From Thermoproteota archaeon (lineage in GTDB: Archaea; Thermoproteota; Thermoprotei_A; Sulfolobales; Desulfurococcaceae), in NCBI GenBank assembly GCA_013154205.1, contig JAADCY010000146.1:1-47831 (forward strand): a stretch of 47,831 bases of DNA. Reading direction: 5' to 3'. Positions 17,439 through 33,989 of the stretch are shown one piece after another (within the stretch, counting starts at the first letter, position 1; every line of letters starts with the position of its first letter). Below the pieces are notes generated by a model. That model searched no databases. It saw nothing but the letters and a program-made list of their open reading frames with translations, and was not told the DNA's origin. The position numbers and the translations under genes are program-made.

Positions 17439-17681
17439 CTATGTTGTAGTAATAAGCTTCTTCAAGACCCGGGCCAGCTCCTCAGAGCTCACCGCGACAG
17501 GCTTACCATGCGTGCTGAACAGCTCCGTGTGGCGGGCCACGACCTGTGTAACAACATGTGTCACGCCCTTATCGTCCACATAGGTGCTGAGCTTATAGTA
17601 GTTCGTGACAACACCCTTGGTGACATACTTGGTCGCATAACGGGTTACGGCCCGGGTCACGTAGAGCGTGGGAATACTCAT
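17439..17681 (-). CDS. VT-repeat family protein (paralog 3)
   Basis: ORF track, 80 aa: LYVTRAVTRYATKYVTKGVVTNYY...GVTHVVTQVV. Confidence 0.6.
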   Translation of the reverse strand: MSIPTLYVTRAVTRYATKYVTKGVVTNYYKLSTYVDDKGVTHVVTQVVARHTELFSTHGKPVAVSSEELARVLKKLITTT

Positions 17682-17694
17682 GTCTTACCACCCT

Positions 17695-18063
17695 TTAGAC
17701 CGCCATGTAAACAGTTATAATTATGGCTACGGCCACGACAATGGCTAGGTAGGCCGGAGTAGTGATTATCTTGAGAAGTATCTGCATAACCGGCATCAAC
17801 GCATCAATGATCTGCTGGAACAATGACTGAGAAGGCTTGTTTAGGACGCCGGTGTAGTTGCCGAGCTCTATGGTCTCGTTACCAGCCACCGTGACGTTAG
17901 GGTCTACCTTGTGCAGGGCCTGCATAGCCGTATAGTGTATCGTGGAGGTCACGTTGAACAGTATCGCGAAACTATAGCCTAGAAACCCCGCTATATACGA
18001 TACGAACAGCGACAGTATGATCCCCGCCACGATGGCCGTAGCGATAGTCCAGCGGCTCGTCAC
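17695..18063 (-). CDS. Membrane protein
   Basis: ORF track, 122 aa with N- and C-terminal TM helices. 4-nt overlap with 18060..18476. Confidence 0.65.
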   Translation of the reverse strand: MTSRWTIATAIVAGIILSLFVSYIAGFLGYSFAILFNVTSTIHYTAMQALHKVDPNVTVAGNETIELGNYTGVLNKPSQSLFQQIIDALMPVMQILLKIITTPAYLAIVVAVAIIITVYMAV

Positions 18064-18476
18064 TCTGTCGGCACCCCGCTAACACGTGATGCTATATAGT
18101 AGTACATGCTATAAGCCGCTACCCCGCTAACCGTCGTAGCTATACTAGCACCGATAAAGCCCGGTACAGGGATCATCGAGACAAGCATAGAGACAAGCCC
18201 GGCAATACCGGTTATCGCGGGGAGAAACAAGCCGAGATAATACGCGTAGCCAGCCCACTGAGCTATCTGTGGCACGAAAGCACGTCCAATAGTCCCGAAA
18301 ACCATTGAAATACCCCCCACAAGCCCCACGTACGGGAAGATATTAGCGGCAAACCGCATCGCGTCCGGAATCGGCATATGATAAGCATAGAACACCCCGA
18401 CAACCAGTAGGCTCAGCACAAACATCAGCCAGCCAAACTGTATAAGCGTCCGGCCAAGCCCCACGATAACCGGCAA
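18060..18476 (-). CDS. Multi-pass membrane protein
   Basis: ORF track, 138 aa with about 4 hydrophobic helices. Confidence 0.7.
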   Translation of the reverse strand: MPVIVGLGRTLIQFGWLMFVLSLLVVGVFYAYHMPIPDAMRFAANIFPYVGLVGGISMVFGTIGRAFVPQIAQWAGYAYYLGLFLPAITGIAGLVSMLVSMIPVPGFIGASIATTVSGVAAYSMYYYIASRVSGVPTE

Positions 18477-18492
18477 CCCAGACCACCCACTA

Positions 18493-18990
18493 CTACGTAA
18501 CCCTGGTCTTCCACACCTTTACCTCACTACTACTCACAGGATGAGCCACCTGCCTAGCAACAGAAACACTACCACCAGAACCACTGCCCGGCTTAACCTG
18601 CACCGGGACAACAACGCCACCACCACTACTAATCTTCTTAACCTGAACCTGCACAGCCTTCTCCTTCAAGTTCTCCTTGACATGCACAACCCTCGTCCCA
18701 ACATACTTCTTAACCCGGCTAACAATATGCGTGACAAACACCGTATGCGGCCTCGTAACCGTGACCGTGACCGGCTTAGTAGACACAATACTCAGATACT
18801 TCAACACAAGCGTAGAAATATCGAGCTCCACAGCCGGCAAAGTAGCAATAACCGGCACCGTAACAACACGAGTCACCCTCTCCTTAACACCCACCGGCAC
18901 AGTAACAACACTAGTTTCAACACCTACATTATGACGTATAACAACTCTCACACTATCACCCCTAGGATAAAATATAGGATTAAACAACAT
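18493..18990 (-). CDS. VT-repeat family protein (paralog 4, longest)
   Basis: ORF track, 165 aa: VVTVPVGVKERVTRVVTVPV...KPVTVTVTRPHTVFVTHIVSRVKKYVGTRVVHV, followed by a G/S linker. The antisense track ORFs 18541..19062 and 18677..18934 are low-complexity mirror images. Confidence 0.6.
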   Translation of the reverse strand: MLFNPIFYPRGDSVRVVIRHNVGVETSVVTVPVGVKERVTRVVTVPVIATLPAVELDISTLVLKYLSIVSTKPVTVTVTRPHTVFVTHIVSRVKKYVGTRVVHVKENLKEKAVQVQVKKISSGGGVVVPVQVKPGSGSGGSVSVARQVAHPVSSSEVKVWKTRVT

Positions 18991-19022
18991 ATATGTGTGA
19001 CCATAACCACTTTATGTTTTTA

Positions 19023-19700
19023 TCACCTTAATGATGTCCGATGTTCTAGGAGTATGAAGTAGCTCTTCTGGTTCTCCACGTTGTTAATGTATCTGCTCAC
19101 GGGATGGAACTCTACAGCATCAACTAGTATCCAGTCCTCTGGCTCTACTTTCTTATAGTGTATTAGGAGATACCTAGCCTTCAGCCTGTAAGCCGTCCTT
19201 ATCCCGCCCTCAAGAATAGTGTCTGGGGACCCATACACGGTGTTGAACTGCTGACGGCGACGATGTATATACTGTGTCCAAGGAGGATCCACTACCACCA
19301 CATCAGGCACTACTCCCAGCTTCTCCACCTTCTTATAGACGCTCCAGCTAGGCGATTTAGTGAACCAGTCTGGCTCGACCACCCATTGATGTATCTTTAC
19401 ATCGCTGGCGAGCAACAGCTTCGGCCTCCATGCACCATAGAAGCGTCCCTGTCCATAGGTTACATCTAATACTATCATGTGCTCTGGATTGTGAAGCGTC
19501 TTCAACAACATATCATAGACTAGGCAACTGATAGGGTACTTGACACACTTACCGCCACGAGCCTGAATATCCCGCTGATCTACCACTCTCAATTTATCAC
19601 CAATCTGTCCTGTATAGCTCGTTATTGTATATGACATACTTGCCGAAACAATCATAGCAGAAGCCAGTATTACGGTAATGACCAAACACTTCTCTGACAC
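19023..19700 (-). CDS. DNA methyltransferase (N6-adenine or N4-cytosine type, DPPW motif)
   Basis: Motif I-like VLDVTYGQGRFY, then motif IV VVVDPPW about 55 aa later. The real start is probably an internal Met, for example at 19637. The hydrophobic N-terminus overlaps 19597..19893. Confidence 0.65.
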   Translation of the reverse strand: MSEKCLVITVILASAMIVSASMSYTITSYTGQIGDKLRVVDQRDIQARGGKCVKYPISCLVYDMLLKTLHNPEHMIVLDVTYGQGRFYGAWRPKLLLASDVKIHQWVVEPDWFTKSPSWSVYKKVEKLGVVPDVVVVDPPWTQYIHRRRQQFNTVYGSPDTILEGGIRTAYRLKARYLLIHYKKVEPEDWILVDAVEFHPVSRYINNVENQKSYFILLEHRTSLR

Positions 19701-19893
19701 TCATTGTTGCATGCCTGAAGCGTGGCACCAATGTTCCCTTCTTATGTATAACTGCTTTCACGAAATCAGTGTTCTTAAACATTATCTCCACATCCACCAT
19801 GTCATTAGGCTCTACCACGTATATCTTGCCCTCACCATCACATACTGGGCACCTAACCTCTCCCAACACCTTCCAGTGCTTCTTAATAACCAA
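19597..19893 (-). CDS. Zinc-ribbon protein
   Basis: ORF track (TTG start). Contains CPVCDGEG and CYDCFG. Confidence 0.5.
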   Translation of the reverse strand: MVIKKHWKVLGEVRCPVCDGEGKIYVVEPNDMVDVEIMFKNTDFVKAVIHKKGTLVPRFRHATMSVREVFGHYRNTGFCYDCFGKYVIYNNELYRTDW

Positions 19894-19939
19894 TCTACCC
19901 CTACATAGAGGACAATCTTCAATCCTTATCCCTTACCAC

Positions 19940-20104
19940 CTATGGATAGTGCTCATAAGTGTACTTGACACAGTAGGTCTCACGGTAACCGCAATCCCTA
20001 CACTCATAGACATAGCAGAGACCCCGTTTCTCATCATAATATGTTTCCTTAAACCTCATCCTCCCCCCACATCTAGGGCATCGATATATGTTAATGCTTG
20101 TCAT
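19940..20104 (-). CDS. Zinc-ribbon mini-protein, 54 aa (below track cutoff)
   Basis: My own translation: MTSINIYRCPRCGGRMRFKETYYDEKRGLCYVYECRDCGYRETYCVKYTYEHYP. The ATG overlaps the stop of 20101..20361 by 4 nt. Confidence 0.55.
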   Translation of the reverse strand: MTSINIYRCPRCGGRMRFKETYYDEKRGLCYVYECRDCGYRETYCVKYTYEHYP

Positions 20105-20361
20105 TTCCTACCACCTACTGGCTCACAACAATACATCCCAATATTATCATCCATGAATAGTGGTTTGTTCCTATAGACACACTCATCGCACTCCTCACAG
20201 GTCTCCGTGTTCTCGCACCACGCATTATACCAGTGACATGGCAGAGACTCTGGCTTTCCGCCTTTCTCCCTACATATCTCCTTAAAGGCATCTATCTCGA
20301 TATCCTCCCTAGTCCTCCCAAGATAGTGCTCCTCAGAGCAGGAGTAATCATAAGTAATCAT
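20101..20361 (-). CDS. Cys-rich small protein
   Basis: ORF track, 86 aa with 10 Cys (CENTETCEECDEC...YCC). Confidence 0.6.
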   Translation of the reverse strand: MITYDYSCSEEHYLGRTREDIEIDAFKEICREKGGKPESLPCHWYNAWCENTETCEECDECVYRNKPLFMDDNIGMYCCEPVGGRK

Positions 20362-21179: not shown

Positions 21180-21593
21180 ATGACCCCCACCCCCCAAACC
21201 CAAAACAAAACCCAAAACACGTCCACATACGATTTTTCAGACAAAACAATCTTTATCCCCCAGCCCAAAATACGCAAATACGAAATCGTCCTTGGCAAAG
21301 TAAAAATCCTAAAACCACTAAAACTTGACGAATGGATAACAGAGCTAAAAATGCACATCGCAAATCTCAGAGACGCACCAGTCGGAACAATAAAATATAT
21401 TGATCCTAGTGAAAACCATGAAGAAATAAGAGACTATGGGCCAGACACAACCCAGATCCTTGTTATCGAGACATATAATGTTAAATACGATGTAATAACA
21501 TATCTACCACCACTCAGCGATCCTGATGAAATAATAGCCGAGCCTGGAGACGAGTTCGAAATAAGCCTTGTCCCAGTCGAGGTGTATAAGTAA
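21180..21593 (+). CDS. Hypothetical protein
   Basis: ORF track, 137 aa. Very A/C-rich coding sequence. Confidence 0.65.
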   Translation: MTPTPQTQNKTQNTSTYDFSDKTIFIPQPKIRKYEIVLGKVKILKPLKLDEWITELKMHIANLRDAPVGTIKYIDPSENHEEIRDYGPDTTQILVIETYNVKYDVITYLPPLSDPDEIIAEPGDEFEISLVPVEVYK

Positions 21594-22273
21594 TGACACG
21601 TATTAAGCATCCATTCTACACCGAGGAGCTAATGAAATTATTAGACACTATTATCGACGAGAGTGTACGGAAAGGTGTGCCATTAAGCCATGACGTCCTA
21701 GAAGTTATACAGAAGCTCTACGAGCACCGCCCAATGCCATTACTAATGTGCAGACAGAGCGGCATCGGCTACCACCATATGCTGAACCGCTATCCGACAA
21801 CCGTGAACCCATTAAAGCCCGTCAAGCCTATACCGGCGATACCGGATAGGAAGATACGGACGATAAGAAGGTTCGCCCTCCACGTTATAAGAAGGTATCG
21901 TTGCCGTAACCTGTACAAAGCCCTTAATAGGCTCGCCGATATATTGTCGGCGGCCGCGTGGCCGGAGCGGGTAGCACCCTACATCGCCTACCAGCTCCCC
22001 CTGCCGCCCGAGCACCAGACAAGGATAATGTTATCAATGATCGCTACAGCGAAGAAATACATGCAGACAGGCATAAGACTCCTAGCCTACGTTGCCAAAC
22101 ACTATATCGACCAGCACATAAAGGACACAGAACAAGCCATAAAGGCAAAACAAGTGTTGAAACAGATCACCGGCCTCGGAGACACAATATACAGCATAAA
22201 ATTCCCAGGCATCAAACCAATACTAATCACACATCCACAACAATACGTAGAAGTAATGAAGGACACATGGTGA
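21593..22273 (+). CDS. Hypothetical protein
   Basis: ORF track, 226 aa. TAATG coupling with the upstream gene. Confidence 0.7.
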   Translation: MTRIKHPFYTEELMKLLDTIIDESVRKGVPLSHDVLEVIQKLYEHRPMPLLMCRQSGIGYHHMLNRYPTTVNPLKPVKPIPAIPDRKIRTIRRFALHVIRRYRCRNLYKALNRLADILSAAAWPERVAPYIAYQLPLPPEHQTRIMLSMIATAKKYMQTGIRLLAYVAKHYIDQHIKDTEQAIKAKQVLKQITGLGDTIYSIKFPGIKPILITHPQQYVEVMKDTW

Positions 22274-22279
22274 AAAACA

Positions 22280-22918
22280 ATGCAGATCTGGCAAAAAATA
22301 AAACAAAAACACCAACAACAAACACAAAAAATATGCTACGAAACAATCAACGAAATAACCAACAAAATCAAAAACAAAAAACTTGAAAAATACGGTGAAC
22401 TAATCGGCACACTAATACTTTATATAGTCTTTGGTTTACTAATAATTGCTACAATAACGGCAGGAACATTATCAGAACCACTCGCAGACAACGTAGCCTT
22501 TGGCATGTTGATATTTTTAGTATTGTCAGCGTTCCTAGCAGTTTTTGTAGCATACTGGATAGATGATGAATACAGAATAGCCAGTAATGTTGAGAAACTT
22601 GCACAAATGATGTGTGAAGAAATAACGGACAACACCATCAACAAAATATACTCACCACTCCTAGATAACTTCGCCAGAAACGACACATGTAACAGCATCA
22701 TATTCCTTATGAAAAAGAAGGAAAAACTAGAACACGCACTAAAAGAGCTGAAAATAGTAAACGGTAAAAATAAAGACATTATCAAAAAACTATCAGCACA
22801 AATAGAAAACCTAGAAAAAGAAATACAACAAGCCGAGGCAAAATGCATAGAAAAAACACTACAATTACTAGCTAAATCACTAATAGAAGAAGCATACAAA
22901 GAATCAAAAAGGCGATAA
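22280..22918 (+). CDS. Membrane-anchored coiled-coil protein
   Basis: ORF track, 212 aa with two TM helices and then a K/E coiled coil. Confidence 0.7.
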   Translation: MQIWQKIKQKHQQQTQKICYETINEITNKIKNKKLEKYGELIGTLILYIVFGLLIIATITAGTLSEPLADNVAFGMLIFLVLSAFLAVFVAYWIDDEYRIASNVEKLAQMMCEEITDNTINKIYSPLLDNFARNDTCNSIIFLMKKKEKLEHALKELKIVNGKNKDIIKKLSAQIENLEKEIQQAEAKCIEKTLQLLAKSLIEEAYKESKRR

Positions 22919-22920
22919 CC

Positions 22921-23727
22921 ATGAAGGCGTGGATAGACCCCCAAGACATAGCCTACTCACAGTATCTCTGCCGCCTACTGTTCAACACGGAGAAAACCTA
23001 CAAAAGCCTAGCAAAGCCCCTGGAAAACGCCCGGATATTCAGCATACCAGAGATCCGCGGCGAGTACGCTAAACACGTAGACCAGGCCAAGAAACACTAT
23101 GAGGCAATGAAGAAACAGGTACAGGAACAAGCCATGGAGTATGCCACGAAGTACTGGCACGCCGCCTACGCCTACGCCACGATACTACGAAACATAAGCC
23201 TAGTATTCACAGCCTACCCACCACAAGTAACAACCACAAGACAACTAGCCGTAAAACCATCAGCCTACATAAACACATTATTCATACCAGTAGTACGTAG
23301 CGACGGCAGACCAATACAGACCATGTTCGCCAAGCTCCTATACAAGCACTACACATTGATAATGCGGTACAAGAGGAAATACATAGAGAAACAACATCCC
23401 CGTCTAAAAATATTCATAGAACAAAAGAAGCAACAATACATGGGGAAAGGCTATCCCGAGGCACGGGCGAGGAAGCTGGCGTACAGGGACGCCCTACGAG
23501 TAATAATAGGCAATATATGGCTCGTAGGAATATACTATCTAGTAAAAGAAGGCGCTATACAGCCCGAAGAAATAATACTGCCATACGAGCTAGCCCAAAA
23601 CCCCGAACTACACAAGGACAGGATCAACCCGGCCGAGACCGTGATAGAATACCGCCTACCACCCGAGCTCCAACACGAGATCGGAGACATAACATGGACA
23701 TGGCTAATAAAAACAACAAAAAGGTGA
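22921..23727 (+). CDS. Hypothetical protein
   Basis: ORF track, 268 aa. Confidence 0.7.
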   Translation: MKAWIDPQDIAYSQYLCRLLFNTEKTYKSLAKPLENARIFSIPEIRGEYAKHVDQAKKHYEAMKKQVQEQAMEYATKYWHAAYAYATILRNISLVFTAYPPQVTTTRQLAVKPSAYINTLFIPVVRSDGRPIQTMFAKLLYKHYTLIMRYKRKYIEKQHPRLKIFIEQKKQQYMGKGYPEARARKLAYRDALRVIIGNIWLVGIYYLVKEGAIQPEEIILPYELAQNPELHKDRINPAETVIEYRLPPELQHEIGDITWTWLIKTTKR

Positions 23728-23732
23728 AAACA

Positions 23733-24175
23733 ATGCCCCTAGCACACTACAAATAGCACACTACAAATACAACGAGCTATACATCGACGTAGACCTCTCC
23801 AGCATAGGCATAGTCACATGCAACCCACCCACCATCGAGGCCTGCGGATACGTATCTACACCCGACGGAGTATTCTCACGTTACATCTGCACAAAAATAA
23901 TAAACTCAAAAAGCTTCAGCGAAGCACTAAGACAGAGAAGAAAAGAACTAGAAGACCAATACTGCGGCGACGCAGACAACCCCGAACAATGCATAGAATA
24001 CTATAACGACCAGCTAGCCGAAATGGCGTGCGAAACCATAGACCCAGAATACATCATACCCTATATAGACATGGAGGAAATCATAGAAGCACTAGCCAAA
24101 GCCGCAGAAGACTTCATCCCAGCAAAAACAAAGCACAGAACACTATTACACTACCTAAATAAGGGTGCCCAATAA
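23733..24175 (+). pseudogene. 142-codon ORF interrupted by a perfect 14-bp tandem duplication (frameshift after codon 7)
   Basis: ATG 23733 gives MPLAHYK then TAG. AGCACACTACAAAT occurs at 23741-23754 and again at 23755-23768. The +2 frame from 23756 is open for 139 codons (AHYKYNELYIDVDLSSIGIVTCNPP...LHYLNKGAQ) to TAA 24173-24175, which overlaps the next ATG (TAATG), and it has no start codon of its own. GGTGA lies upstream of 23733. Confidence 0.65.
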
Positions 24176-24459
24176 TGATGAGCAAAGACATGACAAAGAT
24201 GATAATCGAAGACATAACGGAGAAAATGCAGGAACAAGACAAGGATATTGTCAAGGCATGGATGATAATGCCATTCAGACTAAGCCCTACAAAAATGGTA
24301 ATAGCAATAAAGAAAAAAGAAAACAAACACATCATCTACATAATTAACGCAATGCTCCTCGAATCAATACCAGTAATAATACGCCGCCCACAAGTAATAG
24401 ACGAGATAATAAATATTCTACAAGAAGCAAAACAATATCTAACAAGGGAGAAACAATGA
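24175..24459 (+). CDS. Hypothetical protein
   Basis: ORF track, 94 aa. Confidence 0.6.
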   Translation: MMSKDMTKMIIEDITEKMQEQDKDIVKAWMIMPFRLSPTKMVIAIKKKENKHIIYIINAMLLESIPVIIRRPQVIDEIINILQEAKQYLTREKQ

Positions 24460-24782
24460 CAGAAACACAAAAAGACTATATAGCAGTCATCCTACGCGTA
24501 CGGTGCTACAAACAGGTAAAACAGCTCAAAAACCAAGCCAAAACATACTATACATACCGAGCAACAATACCACGGGAAACAGCCGAGAAACTAGGCCTAC
24601 AAGACGACGAACTAGTACTATGTCTAGTAAAGAGGCCGGAATGGTACCACATAATAGACTGGACAGATAAAGACAACCAGAAACACCTATGGCCCAAATT
24701 ACCAGATAGGGCCAAGCAAGAGCTGTGCCAGCTAGGCCTAGCACCAAAACACCTATGCACAGATATGAAAACACCCCCATAA
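24456..24782 (+). CDS. AbrB/SpoVT-like DNA-binding protein, last gene before the non-coding hub
   Basis: YRATIPRETAEKLGLQDDELVLCLV matches the swapped-hairpin pattern (x-I-P-x-E-x-x-x-K-L-G-L-x-x-G/D-D-x-V). 4-nt overlap with the upstream gene. Confidence 0.6.
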   Translation: MTETQKDYIAVILRVRCYKQVKQLKNQAKTYYTYRATIPRETAEKLGLQDDELVLCLVKRPEWYHIIDWTDKDNQKHLWPKLPDRAKQELCQLGLAPKHLCTDMKTPP

Positions 24783-24791
24783 ACATCTTAT

Positions 24792-25154
24792 ATTGAAAAC
24801 ATCGTCAGGAAGCAACTATAACAACTATACTTGAAAACATTGACAAAATCACTTATACTTGAAAACAAACAGTTCGACCACAAATATTTGAAACAAAACC
24901 CATAATCAAACACAAGAAATCGAAAACAAGTATATAGTACATATAAACCATTGAAAACACATACAAAAACAATTTAATTTGAAAACAATCGCCTAGACAG
25001 AAAGTTTTGAAAACACCCACATAACAATGTTATCTTGAAAACAAAAATATAAACATTGCTTGTTGAAAACAGGAGTCAAACCAATTTAAATTGAAAACAA
25101 ATACATAAACATTAGCGATTGAAAACAAATAGTTAAACATATCTTATTGAACCA
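24792..25154 (+). repeat. Phased iteron array: 13 copies of TTGAAAACA
   Basis: Perfect copies start at 24792, 24830, 24858, 24950, 24979, 25007, 25035, 25063, 25091 and 25119. Variants are at 24887 (TTGAAACA), 24919 (TCGAAAACA) and 25147 (TTGAACCA). Spacings are 38, 28, 29, 32, 31, 29, then 28 six times. Some spacers resemble each other (AAAATATAAACATTG versus AATACATAAACATTA). Confidence 0.9.
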
Positions 25155-25858
25155 TCCACACCATGTCCATCAAAAACATATACACAACAACCATAATCCA
25201 TCCATAAAATACATATTTTCTAATAGACAAGCCCCTCATCACAGTATTCTTTCCAATAACACTAAACAAAAACAACACCAAAACAAACCAAACAAACAAA
25301 ACACCAAACCCAAACAATTAGATATACTAAAAGAAAAACACATACAAAAACATATCATCACATCAATCATATATATTTCTCCAGTGGAAACATAGGTATT
25401 TCCATTAGAAAAACTAACCAATCATTATACAAACCATTAAAACACATATATAAACTAGGAGAAAAATATATATAGAACAAAAAGCTTAAAAACAAATGCA
25501 TACTCAAAAATAAGTGCACCAAACCAAAAAGTTAAAATAACAAACAAAATCCCGTTCTAAACACTATAAAACAAAACAATTCAAATTCATACGTATATAG
25601 AAATCAGACAATGGGATAAAAATATATACTCAACCGCTAAAATATATAGCTAAAAATTACTATTTTCGGTGGGCTCCAGTGGAAACAATGGTTAGAAATT
25701 CGAGTTCGAAACACTAACCTTAATGATATTTAATTAAAGTTAGAACCTCTGAATTTTTCCGAACATATGCACAAAAATATAAATACTTTTCGTTTGTATA
25801 AAGAATCATCACGTCCATATTTTTTATTAGAAAATTCTCCAGTGGAAACAAAGCCTGT

Positions 25859-25958
25859 AAACTCCCCGGTTACCACTATATAAACCTTACTTATAACAAT
25901 ACATCATACATTCACATGAAAACCTCCAGTGGAAACCCGGGTGTAAACCGGGGAGTTT
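25859..25958. repeat. 13-nt perfect inverted repeat AAACTCCCCGGTT / AACCGGGGAGTTT flanking ORB boxes 3 and 4
   Basis: Copies at 25859-25871 and 25946-25958. A 15/15 copy (AACTCCCCGGTTTAC) recurs at 26716-26730 inside ORF 26599..26805. Confidence 0.85.
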
Positions 25959-26095
25959 CACTCCATGAAAAACACTCAAAAAACTATAAATACCACGAAA
26001 AAAGTGCACCAAAAAACATATATAAAAGAAACCCTCCAGAACCCGAGCGAAACTATTCAGCTAATAACATATAATTATTTAAAAATAAGAATTGA

Positions 26096-26117
26096 ATGAT
26101 TGACACTTGTCAATCAT
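26096..26117. promoter_or_regulatory. Perfect palindrome ATGATTGACA-CT-TGTCAATCAT
   Basis: 10-bp arms with a 2-bp spacer, read directly. Lies 34 bp upstream of ORB box 5. Confidence 0.8.
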
Positions 26118-26477
26118 ATATAAACTTTACCCATGATGAGAGCCTACGATTTCCAGTGGAAATAGGGGTTCTTCATCTGGAAATTTAGTTAGAAAAACAA
26201 ACCAAAAACATAAATAAGAGCGATCCAAGAAAAACTTTTAAACCATAAAATTCAACCTAAAAATATTGACATCAAGGAAACCAAAACACCATCCTAAAAA
26301 CATAACAAGAACGGAGTAATACTCCGGAAAAATTAGAGATTCTAACTTCGAAAAACTTAAAAATAGATTTCAGAGATGCTGACAAAGAATTGAAACTAGG
26401 GGTATTTAAATCCGATTTCTGCCATGGAAAACCTCATCGAAAAAAACAAATATCCCCTTATATACTTTTGCCAACCT

Positions 26478-26513
26478 AAAAATGTTGAAAACTCGGTGGG
26501 ATTCAACATTTTT
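26478..26513. other. 12-bp perfect-stem hairpin AAAAATGTTGAA-N12-TTCAACATTTTT
   Basis: Read directly. It sits where plus-strand composition flips from A/C-rich to G/T-rich. Confidence 0.8.
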
Positions 26514-26598
26514 ATCTAGAAAATTTGACCCACTTTCACCGTGTTCTATATAATATATATAGGAAAAGGTGAAAAAGTCGGCTAAATTTATCATTACA

Positions 26599-26805
26599 AT
26601 GAATGCGATAGTGTATTTTGTCTTTTTGTTTTTGAACCTGTTATGTCTAGTACTGTCTTTATTCTGTGCTTGTTTTTGTACAGTTTTTCTTGGTGTTTCC
26701 GATGGGGTTTTTGGTAACTCCCCGGTTTACGATGAGGTTGTACTACGATATTACACTGTAAATGTACATGAAATTTATTTAAAGTGCTATGATGATTCTT
26801 CATAG
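26599..26805 (+). CDS. Small Cys-rich membrane protein
   Basis: Track ORF 26569..26805. I prefer ATG 26599, about 40 nt after the TATATAATATATATA box. TM segment VYFVFLFLNLLCLVLSLFCACFCTVFL. Contains the 15-mer copy at 26716-26730. Confidence 0.45.
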   Translation: MNAIVYFVFLFLNLLCLVLSLFCACFCTVFLGVSDGVFGNSPVYDEVVLRYYTVNVHEIYLKCYDDSS

Positions 26806-26845
26806 TTATATAATACATGTATATCTATTATTAACTTGAGGGTGG

Positions 26846-27472
26846 ATGGTGGTGGCTGGTAATAAGTGGTTGTGTGTATTGTTTTCTCCGTTGAGGTGTT
26901 ATCGTTGTGGTGAAGATGGTTGCCTAGGCTGTAAGTTTATCGGTGTTGTTAAGGATGCAAGGGATGTTCTCAAGTTTATTGGTGGGTTTAAGAGTTTGAG
27001 AGACCTTGTTGTTAAGCTATGTGATTTTCTCGGTTATGGTGGTGGGAGTGTTGTTAGTGATTTGTTCTATGTTAGGCGTGGTGGTTATGCATCGTATGTT
27101 TTGTTCTATGTTCCTGAGGAAAGTAGTGATATGGTTGAGTCTGAGCTTAGGCGTAATATGGTGGCGTTGAACGGTGTTGTGGCTGGTTATCGTGTTGTTT
27201 TTAGGGGTGATGGTGTTGTATGGTATGCTGTGAAGCCGGTTGATCCTGGTGTGTTGTGGGATTTTCTATGGTTTTTGTCTGGGCTGGTTTGTCGGGTGTG
27301 GTGTGTTAGGGGTGCTGGGTTCAGTGTTGTTGGTGGTGCTCTGCACCGTGTACGCTATGTGTACACGTGGCTCAAAGACCCGTTCAGACGAGACATACCC
27401 GAAGTAGACACGCGGGACGTTAAGAAATACGTGGAGGAACTACTGCGGAGGAAGAAAACCATAATAATATAA
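26846..27472 (+). CDS. Zinc-finger protein next to the hub (candidate DNA-binding / initiator-type factor, function unknown)
   Basis: ORF track, 208 aa. N-terminal CYRCGEDGCLGC. GAGGGTGGA lies upstream of the ATG. Codon usage switches near 27340. Confidence 0.7.
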   Translation: MVVAGNKWLCVLFSPLRCYRCGEDGCLGCKFIGVVKDARDVLKFIGGFKSLRDLVVKLCDFLGYGGGSVVSDLFYVRRGGYASYVLFYVPEESSDMVESELRRNMVALNGVVAGYRVVFRGDGVVWYAVKPVDPGVLWDFLWFLSGLVCRVWCVRGAGFSVVGGALHRVRYVYTWLKDPFRRDIPEVDTRDVKKYVEELLRRKKTIII

Positions 27473-27480
27473 GAGGCGTA

Positions 27481-27951
27481 TTATTTATTCTGTTTTTCTT
27501 CGAGTTCTTTATATATTTTTACTGCGAGGGCTTCTGGCTCTGTTTTTTCCGGATCGATTATTATTTTATAGCTGTGAGCATTATGTGGCATCGCCTCTAT
27601 CACTATGTCTTTCTTTCTGAACGGTAGTTTTATTACTAGCATACCCGGTTTTAGTGTAAGGGCGTAGTAGTATCCGGGTATGAAGGACGCCTTTATTGTT
27701 GTGCCGTCCTTCTTTATGAGTTGTTTTATGAAGCGTGATAGCCATTTTCCACGTTTTGTCTTTGATGATATTATCTTGTCTATCATGTAGCTTGCTAGTA
27801 CTGGTATTGTTATTACTCCTAGTGCGGGATTTAGTATTGTTCCTAGAACGGCTATGCCGTAGCCGGCATCTAGTATGTTTGGTGCTTTAAAGCGTAGCTT
27901 CCATATCCGTATTTCTTTTTCCTTTGGTTTAACAAGTGAGATGGAAGGCAT
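27481..27951 (-). CDS. Hypothetical protein with a central hydrophobic segment
   Basis: ORF track, 156 aa. Confidence 0.65.
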   Translation of the reverse strand: MPSISLVKPKEKEIRIWKLRFKAPNILDAGYGIAVLGTILNPALGVITIPVLASYMIDKIISSKTKRGKWLSRFIKQLIKKDGTTIKASFIPGYYYALTLKPGMLVIKLPFRKKDIVIEAMPHNAHSYKIIIDPEKTEPEALAVKIYKELEEKQNK

Positions 27952-27998
27952 TATATCACCATACTATAGTTTGTTTTTGATATATATTTATAGATGAT

Positions 27999-28775
27999 TT
28001 ATCTTGGTATTAGGAGTGTGGCTTGTTTTAGCCGTGTTTTCGGTATTTTTATCTGTGTGTGGAACCAGATGTTGTGGGGTAGTCGTGGCTGGCTGGGTGG
28101 CCGTGGTTTCTGTACGGCGGTTTTTCTGGCCTGTGGTTTCATTGTTGTCTTGGTTGTTGGGCCTAGCCATACCTTGTCGTGTCCCCGCCATAGTGTTTTA
28201 CCGTTTACCGTTAGTATTATGTCTAGCTTGTTCGGGCCGGGATGGGGGCTCGGCGCTAGCTGTGCGGCGGGTATTTTGACGCGTATTGAGCCGTCCCGGA
28301 TTGTCCGGCGTGTCAGCTCTAGTGTCTTTGTTTTGCCGGTGTCGTGGTCGCGGACGTGGAGCATGATCGTTGCGGGGATGCCGGGTTTTGACTGGCTGTA
28401 CTGTAGGATTACTACTAGGCCTGTGTTGAGTGGGTAGACCCAGTAATGTATTAGTTTAGGATTGTTCTTGTTTTCTTTTGCAGTGATGTTTATCGGTATT
28501 TTTTGCGCTCCTACTTCTAGCAGGTATGCTCCGGGCTTGTTGAACGCGGCTAGGAGTGTGATTGTGCCATGGTCTCCCTGTAGGTTTATCGGTATGATGT
28601 CTCCGGGGGCTAGTGTGCCTCCGCCGAGTGATGTGCGGTACCCGGTGTTTGATATTGCTTCTATTATTCTTATTGTTGCTTCTCCGTTCTCGGGTGCTTT
28701 GAGCAATCTGATCTTGTCCTGTGTCTTTGTCCATCTCGCCCCAATCTCTATATACTGGTTTGGCGGTGCCTGCAT
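27999..28775 (-). CDS. Beta-rich hypothetical protein
   Basis: ORF track, 258 aa of natural composition. The three overlapping plus-strand ORFs (27994.., 28004.., 28462..) are G/T-skew artefacts rich in C, V, W and F. Confidence 0.7.
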   Translation of the reverse strand: MQAPPNQYIEIGARWTKTQDKIRLLKAPENGEATIRIIEAISNTGYRTSLGGGTLAPGDIIPINLQGDHGTITLLAAFNKPGAYLLEVGAQKIPINITAKENKNNPKLIHYWVYPLNTGLVVILQYSQSKPGIPATIMLHVRDHDTGKTKTLELTRRTIRDGSIRVKIPAAQLAPSPHPGPNKLDIILTVNGKTLWRGHDKVWLGPTTKTTMKPQARKTAVQKPRPPSQPRLPHNIWFHTQIKIPKTRLKQATLLIPR

Positions 28776-29400: not shown

Positions 29401-29583
29401 ATGGTTAGGGTCGAGGTTGATCTTAGGCTCGTTGTTGATGTTGATGAGGAGACAGCGAAGCTACTAATGATATTGCCGGCGTTTGACAGGGACTCGCTTG
29501 CACAGATAGTGTCGAAGCTGATCGCTATACAGAAGGCACAGATTGGGATACAGGTGAAGAAGCATAAGGAGGCTGGTAAGTGA
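29401..29583 (+). CDS. RHH-like small protein
   Basis: VRVEVDLRLVVDVDEETAKLLMIL...LAQIVSKLIAIQ resembles the C-terminus of 9929..10882. Confidence 0.5.
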   Translation: MVRVEVDLRLVVDVDEETAKLLMILPAFDRDSLAQIVSKLIAIQKAQIGIQVKKHKEAGK

Positions 29584-29804
29584 TGAATAAAGTTATTATC
29601 GAGCTTCATGTCGAACCATCGGGACATAAGGTAATAGATGAGTTACGGAGCATGGCATTCCAGTTTAATGAAGGTAATATTAGCGAGTATGATGTACTAG
29701 ATTATCTTAAACAAATGATTCATACTGATAGGATTATTCTCTGGGAACTGAATATCAAGGAATCAAGGAGGCTGGTAAGTGATGGGGTGGAAGAAGGGCA
29801 GTAA
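29580..29804 (+). CDS. Small hypothetical protein
   Basis: ORF track, 74 aa. Shares a 20-nt junction repeat with the preceding gene, read in a different frame. Confidence 0.5.
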   Translation: MMNKVIIELHVEPSGHKVIDELRSMAFQFNEGNISEYDVLDYLKQMIHTDRIILWELNIKESRRLVSDGVEEGQ

Positions 29805-29967
29805 GGCTGGCAGGTGTAGGGAGTGTTGGTACTATGTCGGCCTACGTAGCGGCGGCCCCTACTGCCGCAAGCACCACAAGAAGATATCGCCGTACATGGA
29901 GCGTTGCCACGATTATCTACCCGTATGGCTACACTACGGCAGAAAACCAAAGATGACCATGGGGTGA
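29779..29967 (+). CDS. Small Cys/His-rich basic protein
   Basis: ORF track, 62 aa: CRECWYY...CRKHH...CHD. Confidence 0.5.
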   Translation: MMGWKKGSKAGRCRECWYYVGLRSGGPYCRKHHKKISPYMERCHDYLPVWLHYGRKPKMTMG

Positions 29968-29974
29968 ACAAGTA

Positions 29975-30241
29975 GTGTATGGTAGTGTTCTTGAGCCTGT
30001 ACTATTGTTTAACAAGATGCTTATGGAGCTAAAGGAAGAATATGAACGACTGAGATGTCCTATTGAGAGATATTGTCCTTATTGTGAGGAGGACTGCCTA
30101 GGCAACTACGAGTACTGCCCGATATACGTTAGGTGTCGGGATGCCGAAATCGTTGTCAGATGCATATTTGAGGCAGTGCCTATAACATGGCGTGACATCC
30201 CTTCTCTCATCAATAGATTCCTAGAGGGGGCGAGCAATTAA
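29975..30241 (+). CDS. Cys-rich small protein
   Basis: ORF track, 88 aa: CPIERYCPYCEEDCLGNYEYCPIYVRC. Confidence 0.55.
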   Translation: MYGSVLEPVLLFNKMLMELKEEYERLRCPIERYCPYCEEDCLGNYEYCPIYVRCRDAEIVVRCIFEAVPITWRDIPSLINRFLEGASN

Positions 30242-30594
30242 TGGTTGATATGTCTATGGTTGTATGGCATAGTAGGGTTGAAACCACGGGTTTCATGGCG
30301 TGGGGCCTCCATAGATATGGCTTGTATGACAAGGAGAGGGTGCTTGAGTTCCAGAAGACAGTGTGGACTTACCACTATGAAATATACACTGAGCATGTCG
30401 ATAACTATGATGTGGCTAACGAGGCAATAGTGTCGTTAATGATGCGGTACATGTATGGTCTGCCACATCCCGACGACTATGGCGTGTATCCTGATAAGTA
30501 TATGGTGTTGGAGCTGTGTTGTAATCCGTGGTATTATTACTGGTGGATGTACGACGAGATACTAGACCCAATATTCAGTAGTAGGAGGCGATAA
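30241..30594 (+). CDS. Hypothetical protein (W/Y-rich)
   Basis: ORF track, 117 aa. TAATG coupling with the upstream gene. Confidence 0.6.
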   Translation: MVDMSMVVWHSRVETTGFMAWGLHRYGLYDKERVLEFQKTVWTYHYEIYTEHVDNYDVANEAIVSLMMRYMYGLPHPDDYGVYPDKYMVLELCCNPWYYYWWMYDEILDPIFSSRRR

Positions 30595-30597
30595 AAC

Positions 30598-30945
30598 ATG
30601 GTGCTGGATAGGTTTGAGGCTGTTCTTTCGTTTGACGAGTTTGTCCGTGTGTGGGAGAGGATTTTGAGGCGGAGCCTCGTGATTGTTAGTAGTTGTCGTG
30701 ATGTGGAGGATAAGGATGTATTGGTGGGTAAGAAGGTTGAATGCACATATACTATTATGGTGGCGTGGGCACGGAGCGTGTTTGGACAAGTGTTTGGCCG
30801 TGAGCCTGTTACTGTGAAGTATGTTGTTACAAGCTATAATGGTGGGCTCGGCGATACCGTTAGCTTCACGGTGGTTGGTGGTTTCCGTGGGGTTAGGGCT
30901 GTGAAGAAGATCATCGGGGAGGTACTGGGGGAGGTGAATGATTGA
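30598..30945 (+). CDS. Hypothetical protein
   Basis: ORF track, 115 aa. Confidence 0.6.
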   Translation: MVLDRFEAVLSFDEFVRVWERILRRSLVIVSSCRDVEDKDVLVGKKVECTYTIMVAWARSVFGQVFGREPVTVKYVVTSYNGGLGDTVSFTVVGGFRGVRAVKKIIGEVLGEVND

Positions 30946-31103
30946 TGCCTTGGAGTGTTCTTGATCGTGAGCTTGAGTTGTTGGGGCGTCGTAAGCGGAT
31001 AGAGGAGGTCTGCGGCGACCATGGGATGGCTGAGTGGTATGAGCGACGTATCGAGAGGCTAAGGCGGGAGAAGGAACGACTGGAAAGAATGAGGAGGTGG
31101 TGA
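30945..31103 (+). CDS. Small helical R/E-rich protein, 52 aa (below track cutoff)
   Basis: My own translation: MPWSVLDRELELLGRRKRIEEVCGDHGMAEWYERRIERLRREKERLERMRRW. TGATG coupling with the upstream gene. Confidence 0.45.
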   Translation: MPWSVLDRELELLGRRKRIEEVCGDHGMAEWYERRIERLRREKERLERMRRW

Positions 31104-31118
31104 AGGGTGGTACGGATT

Positions 31119-31241
31119 ATGGATAAAAAATGTTATGATGAGTGTATGTCGAAATGTTTTCTTGATATGGATGAATGTATCAAGACATGTACAGAGCAGT
31201 GTGAGATACTAGCAGAGACACGTATAGGAGGTGCTAGGTGA
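31119..31241 (+). CDS. CX3C-repeat mini-protein, 40 aa (below track cutoff)
   Basis: My own translation: MDKKCYDECMSKCFLDMDECIKTCTEQCEILAETRIGGAR. An alternative GTG start lies at 31107. The stop overlaps the next start. Confidence 0.4.
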   Translation: MDKKCYDECMSKCFLDMDECIKTCTEQCEILAETRIGGAR

Positions 31242-31552
31242 TGCGGTTTATTCATCCTAGGGTTATAGACTATATATTTGGTGAGGGAAGCTGTGGTCTT
31301 GTTGCTACTATGAGGAATTATCGGTATAGAGTGGGGCATAGTATCCGTGTAAGGGTTGGGAATAAGGTGTTTTGTGGTAATGTTCTTGCTGTTGTTGATA
31401 ATACTAGGGAGAACGCGGAGAAGTATGTGGAGTATAGTGGTTTTAACAGTGTTGATGAGTGGCTTGGCGAGGCTATTAGATTGCATCATGGTAGGAGGCC
31501 GAAGTATATTGTCTTGGTAAAGCTCTGGGACTGCGGGACAAATAAGAGGTGA
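31238..31552 (+). CDS. Hypothetical protein (weak ASCH/PUA-like resemblance)
   Basis: ORF track, 104 aa. Pattern RVGHSIRVRVGNKVF...AEKYVEYSGFNSVDEWL...YIVLVKL. The family call is tentative. Confidence 0.55.
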   Translation: MMRFIHPRVIDYIFGEGSCGLVATMRNYRYRVGHSIRVRVGNKVFCGNVLAVVDNTRENAEKYVEYSGFNSVDEWLGEAIRLHHGRRPKYIVLVKLWDCGTNKR

Positions 31553-31559
31553 CTGGACT

Positions 31560-32087
31560 GTGGTTGAGAAGGGTTTCTGGGATAAGTGGGAGAAAGCCGG
31601 TGAGCATGAGAAAATGGAGCTTGCAAGGCATGTGGCTGAACGAATAATGGAAACATGTAGTGCTATGAGTAATAGCTATAATAAATGGATACATTGTATT
31701 GCGTCACTGATTAAGATCTATCTAGATAGTTATCGCGCATACATGGTCGAGATACTGCCCGGCACAAGCGATTACCGTGTAATTGATCTATGTGATTGTA
31801 GCCTTGACGACGATATGCCGGAGCATGAGAAGCTCAACAAACTACTTAACATGGTTACAGCTTTTGTCCATGAAAACTATGGTGTGTGGCTAATACCTCA
31901 TGAGCCGAAAAAGATAGGCAGGGGTATATATTTGTGCAGATTCGGCGTGAAGAACAATCCCAGGATGTGTTTTGACCACTACACCTACGAGGTACACCTG
32001 TACTATGATGGGAAATGCCCATGTATTAAGGTAATTATTGATAATATAAACGAAGTAATACCACATATTAATAACGGTGAAGAGTAA
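31560..32087 (+). CDS. Hypothetical protein
   Basis: ORF track, 175 aa. Confidence 0.65.
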   Translation: MVEKGFWDKWEKAGEHEKMELARHVAERIMETCSAMSNSYNKWIHCIASLIKIYLDSYRAYMVEILPGTSDYRVIDLCDCSLDDDMPEHEKLNKLLNMVTAFVHENYGVWLIPHEPKKIGRGIYLCRFGVKNNPRMCFDHYTYEVHLYYDGKCPCIKVIIDNINEVIPHINNGEE

Positions 32088-32680
32088 TGCCTGATATGGG
32101 TTTTCTCCGGGTTCTTGAGGACTTGGAGCAGTACGGGTTCTATCCATGGGGAGGGACGGAGACCATGCATAAGGACACGTTATTATTGCTTCAGAAGAGG
32201 CCGTGGCAGTTCCAGTGGCATACAAATATGCCGGTCATCCGTCTCGATGAGAGGCTGACACGTGATGATAGGTTGAAATCGACGGTTACGGATACATATT
32301 TCGTGGAGCCAGACCCCGAGCTGATGGGGTACCACTATCCCAAGTTCTATGTACGCTTACTGGGTGTTAGGCCGTGGGCGTTCTACAACGATATGCTGGA
32401 CGATCTAGGCTATATATTGGAGGAGGAACCACCATACTATGAGACATGGATACATGAGGAGGGCGAACCTAGTGCTGAGGAGGAAGAGCAGGATGCGATC
32501 CAGCGCCACCAGAGGCTTCTAGACGAGCTTGTGGGGAAGCTGAGAGAGATAGGAGTTAAGATATACTGTGAAGAGATCGATGAAAACGAGGACTATATTG
32601 ACTGCTACATAGTGTACCGTGGTGAAGAGTTCTCGATAACCGATGAAATAATAGACGAGTTCCAAGAAGGTGAACAATAA
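32087..32680 (+). CDS. Acidic hypothetical protein
   Basis: ORF track, 197 aa. TAATG coupling on both sides. Confidence 0.7.
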   Translation: MPDMGFLRVLEDLEQYGFYPWGGTETMHKDTLLLLQKRPWQFQWHTNMPVIRLDERLTRDDRLKSTVTDTYFVEPDPELMGYHYPKFYVRLLGVRPWAFYNDMLDDLGYILEEEPPYYETWIHEEGEPSAEEEEQDAIQRHQRLLDELVGKLREIGVKIYCEEIDENEDYIDCYIVYRGEEFSITDEIIDEFQEGEQ

Positions 32681-33465
32681 TGCCTCGTACCAGGGTTGAT
32701 TATGCTACTGATCAGATAACGGTCTACCGGTACTGTTCATACGGGTGCAGATACTGTTATGTCTGGCGCAACAAGCTGTTTGCGGGCCGGGTTATGCGTG
32801 GCAAGTACGACCCAGTCGAGGAGGCTAGAAGGTATCTCGGGAAGACCGGTAGGACAATAGTTGTATCCTTTGTCAGCGACCCCTATCCGCCCGAGGAGGA
32901 CAAGAAGAGGCTTACACGTAGAGTATTGGAGATACTGTGTAGGAGCAGGAACAGGGTCATGGTACTGACAAAGAACCCGGTGCTCGCCCTGAGAGACCTA
33001 GACGTTATGGGGCAGGGTGACTGCTGGCTCGGCACAACGGTCATCACTACTCATCCATGGTGGCACCGTGTACTGGAGCCCCGGGCACCCCCGCCCCTTA
33101 ACCGTTTGCTAGCCCTCTTTAGGGCTAGGGAGAAAGGCATCCATACATGGCTGAGCATCGAGCCAATAATACCCCGTGTCACAGACCTAGACGTGATAGC
33201 ACATCTTGCCGTGGAGCTCGGCATAGACTATGTCGTGCTGGGACGCTACAACTACTGGAAACACATCAGCCTACCCGAAGCCCAGTACCTACGCATAACC
33301 GAGGGCGGCCACGAATTCCTATGGCTTGACGCAAACCCTACATCTGAGGAAGAACTAGTACAGTGGTACCGGGAACACGTACCAAAAACAATAGATTTCC
33401 TCAAAGAACACGGGGTCAAATACCATATAAAGAAAGAACTAGCCAAGGTGCTGAATAATGCCTAG
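32680..33465 (+). CDS. Radical-SAM enzyme (subfamily unresolved; short N-terminal-cluster type)
   Basis: CSYGCRYCY at residues 19-27 is the CX3CX2C 4Fe-4S/SAM motif. 261 aa. VVSFVSDPYPP and VLTKNP follow as expected for the beta strands of a partial TIM barrel. Confidence 0.8.
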   Translation: MPRTRVDYATDQITVYRYCSYGCRYCYVWRNKLFAGRVMRGKYDPVEEARRYLGKTGRTIVVSFVSDPYPPEEDKKRLTRRVLEILCRSRNRVMVLTKNPVLALRDLDVMGQGDCWLGTTVITTHPWWHRVLEPRAPPPLNRLLALFRAREKGIHTWLSIEPIIPRVTDLDVIAHLAVELGIDYVVLGRYNYWKHISLPEAQYLRITEGGHEFLWLDANPTSEEELVQWYREHVPKTIDFLKEHGVKYHIKKELAKVLNNA

Positions 33466-33793
33466 GGTTTTTGTTGTTTTTAATGATTGGGAGCGGGTGG
33501 ATGAGATGAGGGTTTATAGTGTTGGGTGGCTTGGTGCCCGGGTTTTCCTGGAGTCTAGGTATCGCTACCATCCGGTTCTCCTGCCTTCTTGTCTTAGGGT
33601 TGTTAGTGAGGTAATAATTAGTTTTGAGGATGAATCGGACAGGGATGCCGAGCATGTAAGGAGAATGATGTGGGTTTTGAAGCATGTATATCATAGTCTT
33701 AGACAGCGGCATTGGGACACAAGCAGAAAATACGTCGAGCTAATAGAGAGTGGAACACTAAAACAATTCCTCAAGGCGATAAACAATGTATGA
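33458..33793 (+). CDS. Hypothetical protein
   Basis: ORF track, 111 aa. 8-nt overlap with the upstream gene. Confidence 0.6.
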   Translation: MPRVFVVFNDWERVDEMRVYSVGWLGARVFLESRYRYHPVLLPSCLRVVSEVIISFEDESDRDAEHVRRMMWVLKHVYHSLRQRHWDTSRKYVELIESGTLKQFLKAINNV

Positions 33794-33989
33794 ACACGTA
33801 AGACTTGTTAGAAACGGACAGCTAGTACTTCGACGTCTTGTCGAGAAAATAGTTAGACATTATGATTACTGCGGGGTTTTCTTGAACGAAGATACTGCAG
33901 TGCAGATACTGGTGGAAAAGGGAGAGGAGGCCCTTGATGCTGTCTGTACTATTATTGATACTATGATTAAGTATAGGGGTGATAGGTAA
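33786..33989 (+). CDS. Hypothetical protein
   Basis: ORF track, 67 aa. 8-nt overlap with the upstream gene. Confidence 0.55.
   Translation: MYEHVRLVRNGQLVLRRLVEKIVRHYDYCGVFLNEDTAVQILVEKGEEALDAVCTIIDTMIKYRGDR

Follow-up and report, generated by a model that had tools for sequence, protein, structure and literature searches.

In this study, we analysed a stretch of 47,831 nucleotides of archaeal DNA (hereafter the window), which comprises bases 1-47831 of the 49,767-bp contig Ga0072504_101672 of JGI metagenome 3300005095 and belongs to an uncultivated virus-like or plasmid-like archaeal element of at least 50 kb. A gene-free, AT-rich region of 1.8 kb at 24783-26568, referred to as the hub, is its candidate origin and control region and carries five direct copies of a 13-bp sequence of the Origin Recognition Box (ORB) type. 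Judged from the sequence, the chances are evenly balanced that the hub is a replication origin which recruits the host initiator Orc1 through these boxes; on this reading, it would probably also be an early control region of the element. An earlier reading of the window, made from the sequence only, had proposed such a host-initiator origin. The ORB-type boxes, the lack of an Orc1 gene on the contig and the composition, skew and conservation of the hub agree with that proposal, and an unclosed contig, diverged boxes in the relative L005 and an operator alternative speak against it.

ORB-type boxes of the hub

The 13-mer CTCCAGTGGAAAC occurs four times in the hub, as box 1 (25379-25391, +), box 2 (25674-25686, +), box 3 (25837-25849, +) and box 4 (25924-25936, +). 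Box 5 (26150-26169, +) is a 7+1+7 palindrome, ATTTCCAgTGGAAAT, whose 13-mer TTCCAGTGGAAAT occupies 26151-26163 and is followed by an A and then by GGGG at 26165-26168. The five hub boxes, all on the + strand, span 785 bp. Coordinates, strand and G-run agree exactly with those of the sequence-only reading, whose tally of five boxes was incomplete: it overlooked a sixth good copy, CTCCAGTGGAAAT (also given as CTCCAGTGGAAATgtGGGtt), located at 8240-8252 on the - strand, followed by gtGGGtt and lying in the divergent intergenic region upstream of the gene 8304-8708. When up to two mismatches were allowed, seven matches were found in the window, whereas dinucleotide-preserving shuffles gave 0.53 on average, 3 at most and in no case seven (0/100); the earlier claim that the repeats are not due to chance was thus borne out. 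A two-mismatch match at 314-326 (-) is inside a gene and is probably fortuitous.

A G-rich element, GGT or GGGT, stands 1-3 nt past the core in five of the six boxes (ATAGGT, AATGGT, CCGGGT, AGGGGT and GTGGGT), and AAAGCC takes its place at box 3. The G-string is clear at boxes 5 (aGGGGT), 6 (gtGGGT) and 4 (cCGGGT), with GGT only at boxes 1 (atAGGT) and 2 (aaTGGT); the sequences after boxes 3 and 4 are aaagccTGTAAACTCCCCGG and cCGGGTGTAAACCGGGG. The earlier attribution of a G-string to box 5 was correct, and box 3 has none. Degenerate second copies follow about 20 nt after box 1 (TTTCCATTAGAAA), box 2 and box 5 (TTCATCTGGAAAT), and box 4 is inside an imperfect palindrome (repeat I7, 25917-25960). 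Box 5 appears to be the best full ORB of the set.

The boxes match 12-13 of the 13 bases of the ORB1, ORB2 and mini-ORB cores of Pyrococcus furiosus, the reference sites being those of Pyrococcus. There, core and G-string read TTCCAGTGGAAAT..GGGGGG in ORB1 and CTCCAGTGGAAAT..GGGGG in ORB2, and the gel-shift fragments bound by Cdc6/Orc1 in vitro contain, on the other strand, TTCCAGTGGAAATGAAACTCTGGGGGG for ORB1, CTCCAGTGGAAATGAAACTCTGGGGG for ORB2 and CTCCAGTGGAAAT for the mini-ORB (PMC1904270). In Sulfolobus islandicus, the footprinting probe of oriC1 holds TCTCCAATGGAACcgaaGGGGT and the inverted TCTCCAAATGAAAATactGGGT around an AT-rich stretch with the ucm element CTTTTGTATAAT (PMC12141716 supplement); we labelled these two sites ORB2 and ORB3 by eye from the published probe. 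The pattern TCTCCA..TGGAA..GGGT is common to the boxes and to the two S. islandicus sites so labelled, which have the same dyad halves (invariant TTCC/TCC ... GAA), and core and G element are arranged alike, with TCTCCAATGGAAC-cgaa-GGGGT in the probe vs TCTCCAGTGGAAAC-at-AGGT and TTCCAGTGGAAAT-a-GGGGT here, in AT-rich DNA in both cases. The distance from core to G-string differs, being 1-3 nt here, 8 nt in Pyrococcus (spacer GAAACTCT) and 3-4 nt in Sulfolobus. On sequence grounds, the boxes belong to the ORB class, and the earlier identification as ORB or mini-ORB elements, for which an alignment with published sites had been proposed, is upheld by both comparisons.

The 21-mer of box 5, TTCCAGTGGAAAYAGGGGTTC (TTCCAGTGGAAATAGGGGTTC), was found identically in eight marine metagenome loci (L006-L013) and in two metagenome-assembled genomes (MAGs) of Poseidoniales. 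The inspected loci are intergenic, each with a degenerate second copy after the 21-mer, and no cdc6 gene was found near them within the DNA inspected; these 21-mers may be the ORBs of their own genomes. The Poseidoniales sites (L015, 1878-1898; L016, 3180-3200) follow a PQQ/beta-propeller gene; a second group of marine contigs also has the exact 21-mer in intergenic DNA. The scans of metagenomes and genomes with this 21-mer recovered no relatives of the element, and the single match in a viral contig, which has GC-rich surroundings and no other box, looks like chance.

A candidate origin for the host initiator

No member of the Cdc6/Orc family was found among the 83 proteins predicted on the whole contig with Pfam, NCBIfam and precomputed Pfam matches. 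A Walker A motif is present in four proteins only, and the P-loop proteins are SF2-helicase-like or RecA-like. Since genes for MCM, primase and polymerase were likewise not found on the available 49.8 kb, the element needs the host replisome, and since no gene for a box-reading protein was found, it most likely borrows the host initiator. The earlier statement that the window has no orc1/cdc6 gene therefore extends to the part of the contig beyond it. Such a gene just outside the window, which had been named as the finding that would make this an ordinary origin, does not occur on the rest of the 49.8-kb contig, although the contig is not closed. A cis-linked initiator gene is not obligatory even in cells, because the single cdc6 gene of Thermoproteus tenax is far from its only ORB motif (PMC3189178). 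In the open-access literature, we found no archaeal virus described with an ORB cluster but no orc1 gene; the authors of a preprint on Aeropyrum globular virus 1 searched its genome for ORBs without finding any.

Composition, skew, stability and conservation are four indirect lines which fit an origin in the hub. First, the G+C content of the hub is 29-33%, against about 47% contig-wide, and no credible gene lies within 24783-26568, in agreement with the AT-rich, non-coding setting described earlier. Second, the cumulative G-C curve has its minimum at 26.6 kb, and the strand-composition switch by which a canonical oriC is recognised was found at the hub: the side of the hub (t=4.5) outweighed gene orientation (t=1.7) in a per-gene regression of + strand GC skew, and the breakpoint that fitted best lay at 25-27 kb; for AT skew, the side-of-hub term had t=-5.8. 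Third, a candidate unwinding element lies just left of box 5 at 26040-26125 and carries the palindrome TTGACAcTTGTCAA (26100-26113, perfect 6+6). Its 60-mer 26062-26121, 30 nt left of box 5, has -61.4 kcal/mol, the mean of the contig being -79.1. Only one 60-mer of the intergenic stretch is less stable, namely 26774-26833 at the promoter of the next gene, and contig-wide 26062-26121 ranks ninth. Fourth, the core 25645-26240 is 87% identical to L005, a 3.8-kb sequence from a different sample and the sole relative found that covers the hub, whereas the flanks are 52-70% and the adjacent protein about 60-65% identical; the non-coding core is thus more constrained than its neighbours. The candidate unwinding segment is almost identical in L005 (alignment columns 610-680).

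On this reading, host Orc1/Cdc6 would recognise the ORB-type boxes, above all the palindromic box 5, and host MCM would be loaded at the adjoining AT-rich segment around 26040-26125, so that box 5 and this segment would be the functional centre. Replication would then run bidirectionally from the hub, with the ATPases, the helicase and the Cas4-like nuclease of the element acting downstream or in recombination. We infer all three of host Orc1 binding, MCM loading and origin activity. As a more specific and tentative proposal, which we think rather doubtful, the element may be a case of origin mimicry, in which a hot-spring virus of about 50 kb with no initiator of its own makes do with a direct ORB array and one palindromic full ORB for host MCM loading and bidirectional replication, possibly aided by a ucm-like element and a 28-bp-phased array of TTGAAAACA half-sites.

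Several observations weigh against a host-fired origin in the hub. All five hub boxes are direct and do not form an inverted pair. Up to three mismatches, the minus strand of the hub gave no copies apart from box 5, which as a palindrome matches its own complement, and from a weak site at 26695, just right of the hub. This bears out the earlier remark that the arrangement is unlike the inverted ORB pairs of cellular origins; a second orientation could come only from the palindromic core of box 5 or from the loosely ORB-like inverted repeat at 25737/26323. The boxes are also diverged in L005, where ATGCAGTGGAAAC, TTCCAGTTGAAAC and CTCCAACGGAAAC stand at boxes 2, 3 and 4, with two substitutions each, several of them in the dyad; the dyad is kept at box 5 only (TTCCAGTGGAAAC AGGGGTTC), and box 1 is outside the coverage of L005. 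Changed positions amount to 7 of 52 in the boxes and 69 of 545 in the rest of the core (Fisher p=0.83), so that the boxes are no better conserved than their surroundings, and the whole conservation argument rests on a single relative. This pattern may mean that box 5 alone is critical or that sites turn over; the latter fits the gain of TTTCCAGTGGGAT in L005, shortly before the box 2 that is damaged there. In addition, the contig is unclosed, so an orc1/cdc6 gene may lie off it. Finally, a TATATA begins 31 nt upstream of box 2, 34 nt upstream of box 5 and, on the + strand, 37 nt upstream of box 6, so that the three boxes coincide with predicted transcription starts. Box 6, at a distance of 17 kb from the hub, has a TATA-like ATATATAAAC (8204) on one side and, on the other, the ATG (8304) of an ordinary gene.

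The known cellular origins resemble the hub in their boxes and differ from it in layout. The oriC1 of Sulfolobus/Saccharolobus consists of ORB3, an unwinding element with ucm, and ORB2, beside orc1-1. Here, no orc1 adjoins the boxes, which all point one way instead of being paired in inverted orientation and number five in 785 bp, compared with three within some 200 bp at oriC1. Each of the two inverted ORBs on either side of the unwinding element is required in S. islandicus. The oriC of Pyrococcus has two 34-bp ORBs and many 13-bp mini-ORBs, with a second cluster in dp1. Its 13-mer is essentially identical to that of the hub (CTCCAGTGGAAAT, TTCCAGTGGAAAT), and in both cases mini-ORBs are clustered over about 1 kb together with a few full ORBs that have G-strings; unlike here, cdc6 is adjacent and the two full ORBs form an inverted repeat. 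In vivo, no binding is seen at the lone mini-ORBs in other parts of the Pyrococcus genome, a reason for caution with box 6 (PMC1904270). Neither orc1/cdc6 nor whiP, the initiator genes that adjoin a canonical oriC, was found on the 49.8-kb contig. With no inverted ORB pair and no adjacent initiator gene, we therefore do not count the locus as a member of the canonical oriC class.

Many haloarchaeal viruses and plasmids have their own orc1/cdc6 beside ORBs. These replicons and captured chromosomal origins share with the hub the setting of a mobile element with ORB-type repeats in AT-rich intergenic DNA. They differ in having a linked cdc6/orc1 or whiP gene, whose product is specific for its own origin, and none was found here. 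The shared setting agrees with the proposal that additional chromosomal origins stem from elements of this type (PMC4010727). As for viral recruitment of a cellular initiator in general, the closest functional analogy that we can offer is with a eukaryotic virus. In the oriP of Epstein-Barr virus, a viral cis element is replicated by host ORC and MCM with neither a viral helicase nor a viral polymerase, and the virus's own adaptor EBNA1 is needed. Here, by contrast, the cis element itself resembles the native site of the host initiator.

Most crenarchaeal viruses are without a recognisable replication initiator of their own. If host Orc1 fires the hub, initiator piracy would be documented in archaea, and a direct ORB array with one palindromic ORB could work as an origin, so that an inverted pair would not be obligatory. 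Elements of this kind would then be a plausible type of donor for extra chromosomal origins and a natural intermediate of the "captured extrachromosomal element" model.

Alternative readers of the boxes

We consider it unlikely that the boxes are instead transcriptional operators, with a dimeric regulator on the TCCAGTGGA dyad at or after the transcription starts of rightward hub promoters and of the promoter of gene 8304. A host Orc1-family protein of the Orc1-2 type or a factor of the element could serve as this regulator, and the hub could be a regulatory or non-coding-transcript region instead of, or besides, an origin. The position of box 6 at a predicted transcription start and the TATATA spacing of boxes 2, 5 and 6 make an operator role possible. 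The chance of TATATA at one specific 3-nt offset from a random hub position is p ~0.02, in a post hoc test on an AT-rich region. In addition, the TATATAAAC element is found again at 25449, 25879 and 26117, the hub boxes share one direction like co-directional promoters, and Orc1 paralogues are known as regulators (PMC9738581, PMC10123103). However, the spacing does not extend to the other hub boxes, since TATATA is 9 nt from box 1 (abutting it), 47 nt from box 4 and missing at box 3. The hub has no credible open reading frames (ORFs), its putative transcripts show little excess structure and no Rfam match, and the skew switch is left unexplained by operators. A single promoter region outside the hub has a box, so the 13-mer is not a generic operator; a generic operator upstream of many promoters, which the sequence-only reading had named as an outcome that would overturn its proposal, was not seen. 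Origin and operator roles are not mutually exclusive, and ORBs of cellular origins can likewise lie within the promoter of orc1. Were the boxes operators, viral promoters would be wired to a host Orc1-family regulator, which would be informative too.

A factor encoded by the element itself could also read the boxes, their ORB likeness being convergent or ancestral; we think this quite improbable. The candidates are a 474-aa ATPase and the two small uncharacterised proteins that flank the hub, one of 206 aa and Cys-rich, the other of 108 aa. The 474-aa P-loop ATPase (44774-46198, +; phrog_5484, E=7.9e-13) belongs to the fusellovirus "DnaA-like" family, which is annotated as a replication initiator in fuselloviruses, and its gene had been overlooked in the earlier survey. 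In a tblastn search of 50,697 virus records, 12 of its 13 matches were in Sulfolobus spindle-shaped viruses (SSVs), mostly in DnaA-like genes, and the thirteenth in a Sulfolobus super-elliptical virus; the family is rare, with 71 representatives among 1.8 billion proteins. The core is homologous to the B251-family ATPase of SSVs, with about 33% identity over about 115 aa to SSV2, SSV4, SSV5, SSV6 and SSV7. Unlike the SSV proteins, the ATPase is twice as long, with a helical N-terminal domain of 230 aa and a long C-terminal helix, and the element has at least 50 kb against about 15 kb in SSVs.

No Pfam or PDB sequence match was obtained for this ATPase. In its AlphaFold2 model (pLDDT 88, pTM 0.89), a helical N-domain of 230 residues is followed by a P-loop core that is structurally closest to RecA/Rad51 and by a single long helix at the C terminus; neither a winged helix nor an initiator-specific motif is present. 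An Orc1/Cdc6 identity was rejected on this basis. The modelled core resembles RecA and not an AAA+ initiator, so that the traditional "DnaA-like" name of the family becomes questionable, and the protein may be regarded as a candidate element-encoded replication factor distinct from Orc1/Cdc6.

As a reader of the boxes, the ATPase has in its favour that the modelled N-domain could bind DNA, and the four identical 13-mers here vs the diverged ones in L005 would fit co-evolution with a reader of the element's own. Against it stand its RecA-like core and single C-terminal helix, the distance of 19 kb from the hub, and the lack of an ORB cluster in SSV2, which has the same ATPase family (15 matches vs 13 expected). 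In the fragments examined of distant ATPase relatives (L018-L021), no ORB boxes or origin-like repeats were found, three such relatives being box-free in 3-12 kb of contig. In neither of the flanking proteins was a DNA-binding fold detected. The 206-aa protein (26852-27472, +) has no family match, and its model (pLDDT 61) no fold match; the earlier Zn-finger label for this gene (26846-27472) was not confirmed by family or fold search. For the 108-aa protein (24456-24782, +), there was no Pfam or PHROG match and no homologue among 5.8 billion clusters, and these searches lend no support to its "AbrB-like" label. Finally, the very close match to cellular ORBs, including a 21-mer identical to the sites in Poseidoniales MAGs, also speaks against a reader encoded by the element.

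A further explanation is that of an ordinary replicator-initiator pair, in which the element's own orc1/cdc6 gene lies in an unassembled part; we hold this to be the least probable of the three. Archaeal origins are typically beside the initiator gene, and captured extrachromosomal elements are pairings of origin and cdc6 (PMC4010727). The contig has no terminal repeat or overlap, and a relative, L004, runs at least 1.9 kb (three genes) past its right end, with DNA that is unmatched in the contig; the genome is therefore not closed. A circular closure was rejected since the L004 extension does not match the start of the contig either. However, in the known pairs the gene adjoins the ORBs, whereas here none is present within 24 kb on either side, the three extra L004 genes have no Pfam match, and both the 49.8 kb assembled and the V-shaped skew, which has the hub at its centre, suggest that the missing part of the genome is small. 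A structured non-coding RNA as the main explanation of the hub was rejected, because folding z-scores were mostly -1.4 to +0.2, with a sole outlier of -2.4 in the box 1 segment.

Further features of the hub and the element

Apart from the boxes, the hub contains several other repeats. The inverted repeat I4 has its left arm at 25737-25762 (+) and its right arm, CTCCGGAAAAATTAGAGATTCTAAC, at 26323-26348 (+), each of 26 nt, 81% complementary and separated by 560 nt, so that boxes 3-5 are bracketed. Its cores TTCGGAAAAAT and CTCCGGAAAAAT face inward and resemble shortened ORBs, and both arms are kept in L005. Outside the coverage of L005, an array of TTGAAAACA occupies 24765-25127 (+) with 10 exact and 2 near copies, most of which recur every 28 bp exactly, the 19-bp spacers between them being unrelated. 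The array begins just ahead of the stop codon of the 108-aa gene, and the 49.8-kb contig has one further exact copy. The 9-mer is similar to ATGAAAA, the right half of Sulfolobus ORBs. The array may consist of ORB half-sites, or it may be of the iteron or centromere type.

Elements resembling ucm are found as GTTTGTATAAA at 25792-25802 (+), 33 nt upstream of box 3, and as GTTTGTATAAT at 25424-25434 (-), 32 nt from box 1. The ucm of Sulfolobus origins (CTTTTGTATAAT) is bound by the nucleoid protein UBP; in S. islandicus, it lies 37 nt upstream of ORB2 (PMC12141716 supplement), a spacing like that of GTTTGTATAAA and box 3, although the match is weak. Motifs of this TATA-like kind, 11-12 bp long, are frequent, with 37 matches in the window vs 25.7 expected and weak statistics, so those in the hub may be due to chance. 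A second motif, AACTCCCCGGTTTAC, occurs at 25859-25876 (+), 25941-25958 (-) and 26716-26730 (+); the two copies directly downstream of boxes 3 and 4 are kept in L005, that of box 3 with one substitution, and the third copy is not kept. The sequence AAGTGCACCAAA (core GTGCAC) is present twice in the hub, at 25512-25523 and 26002-26013.

At the right edge of the hub, the ORF 26569-26805 (+) encodes a 78-aa membrane protein and is probably real, with a called counterpart at the aligned position of L005. The gene 26406-26803 (-) of the source pipeline, with a 69-residue product over 398 nt, is probably an artefact, as direct translation gives 6 in-frame stops. The 206-aa protein has a homologue of 338 aa in L005 (P0004, 1397-2413), with 60% pairwise identity and 65% in the best local alignment. 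Its first ~165 residues align with P0004, and the C-terminal 170 residues of P0004 are missing in the window.

Family assignments are missing for most of the approximately 83 predicted genes of the 49.8-kb contig. Recognisable products include a RecA/Sak4-like ATPase (11477-12337), a Cas4-like nuclease (12351-13022), an XPB/Hef-like SF2 helicase (14922-17246), a serine recombinase (39083-39694) and a Dam-type methylase (41751-42794), which also has a weak, sub-threshold match to a Pyrobaculum-spherical-virus ORF131-like domain (E=0.0018; 18.7 vs the 27-bit cut-off), as well as a radical-SAM protein and a glycosyltransferase. No tRNA was found in the window, and Rfam gave no match at gathering thresholds, with a single chance match of E=0.15 in the hub. 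Against the 50,697 virus records, megablast with 24 kb and blastn with the hub returned chance AT-rich matches only, and no relatives were recovered from IMG/VR or GTDB genomes through the neighbouring proteins or the ATPase alignment. A distant syntenic relative, L020, is a 12-kb MAG contig (NCBI GCA_027033055.1, JALVLQ010000240.1, 1-12146), which has the same ATPase family, as well as a 254/259-aa gene pair and a serine recombinase like those at 36954-39694 of the window. No ORB boxes are present in L020, which might be of use in assigning a host lineage.

Several predicted proteins with no family match are rich in Val/Thr repeats (VT..VT..), namely those at 1436-1861, 14567-14875, 17439-17681 and 18493-18990, which could be real structural proteins or mis-called frames. 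In addition, the genes fall into two compositional classes, whose coding strands are purine-rich either through A (AT skew +0.3 to +0.5, C above G) or through G (GC skew +0.2 to +0.5). The G-rich class covers 13037-20361 and 29401-35032, and the A-rich class, at 21180-24782, 27481-28775 and 36277-38552, borders the hub on either side.

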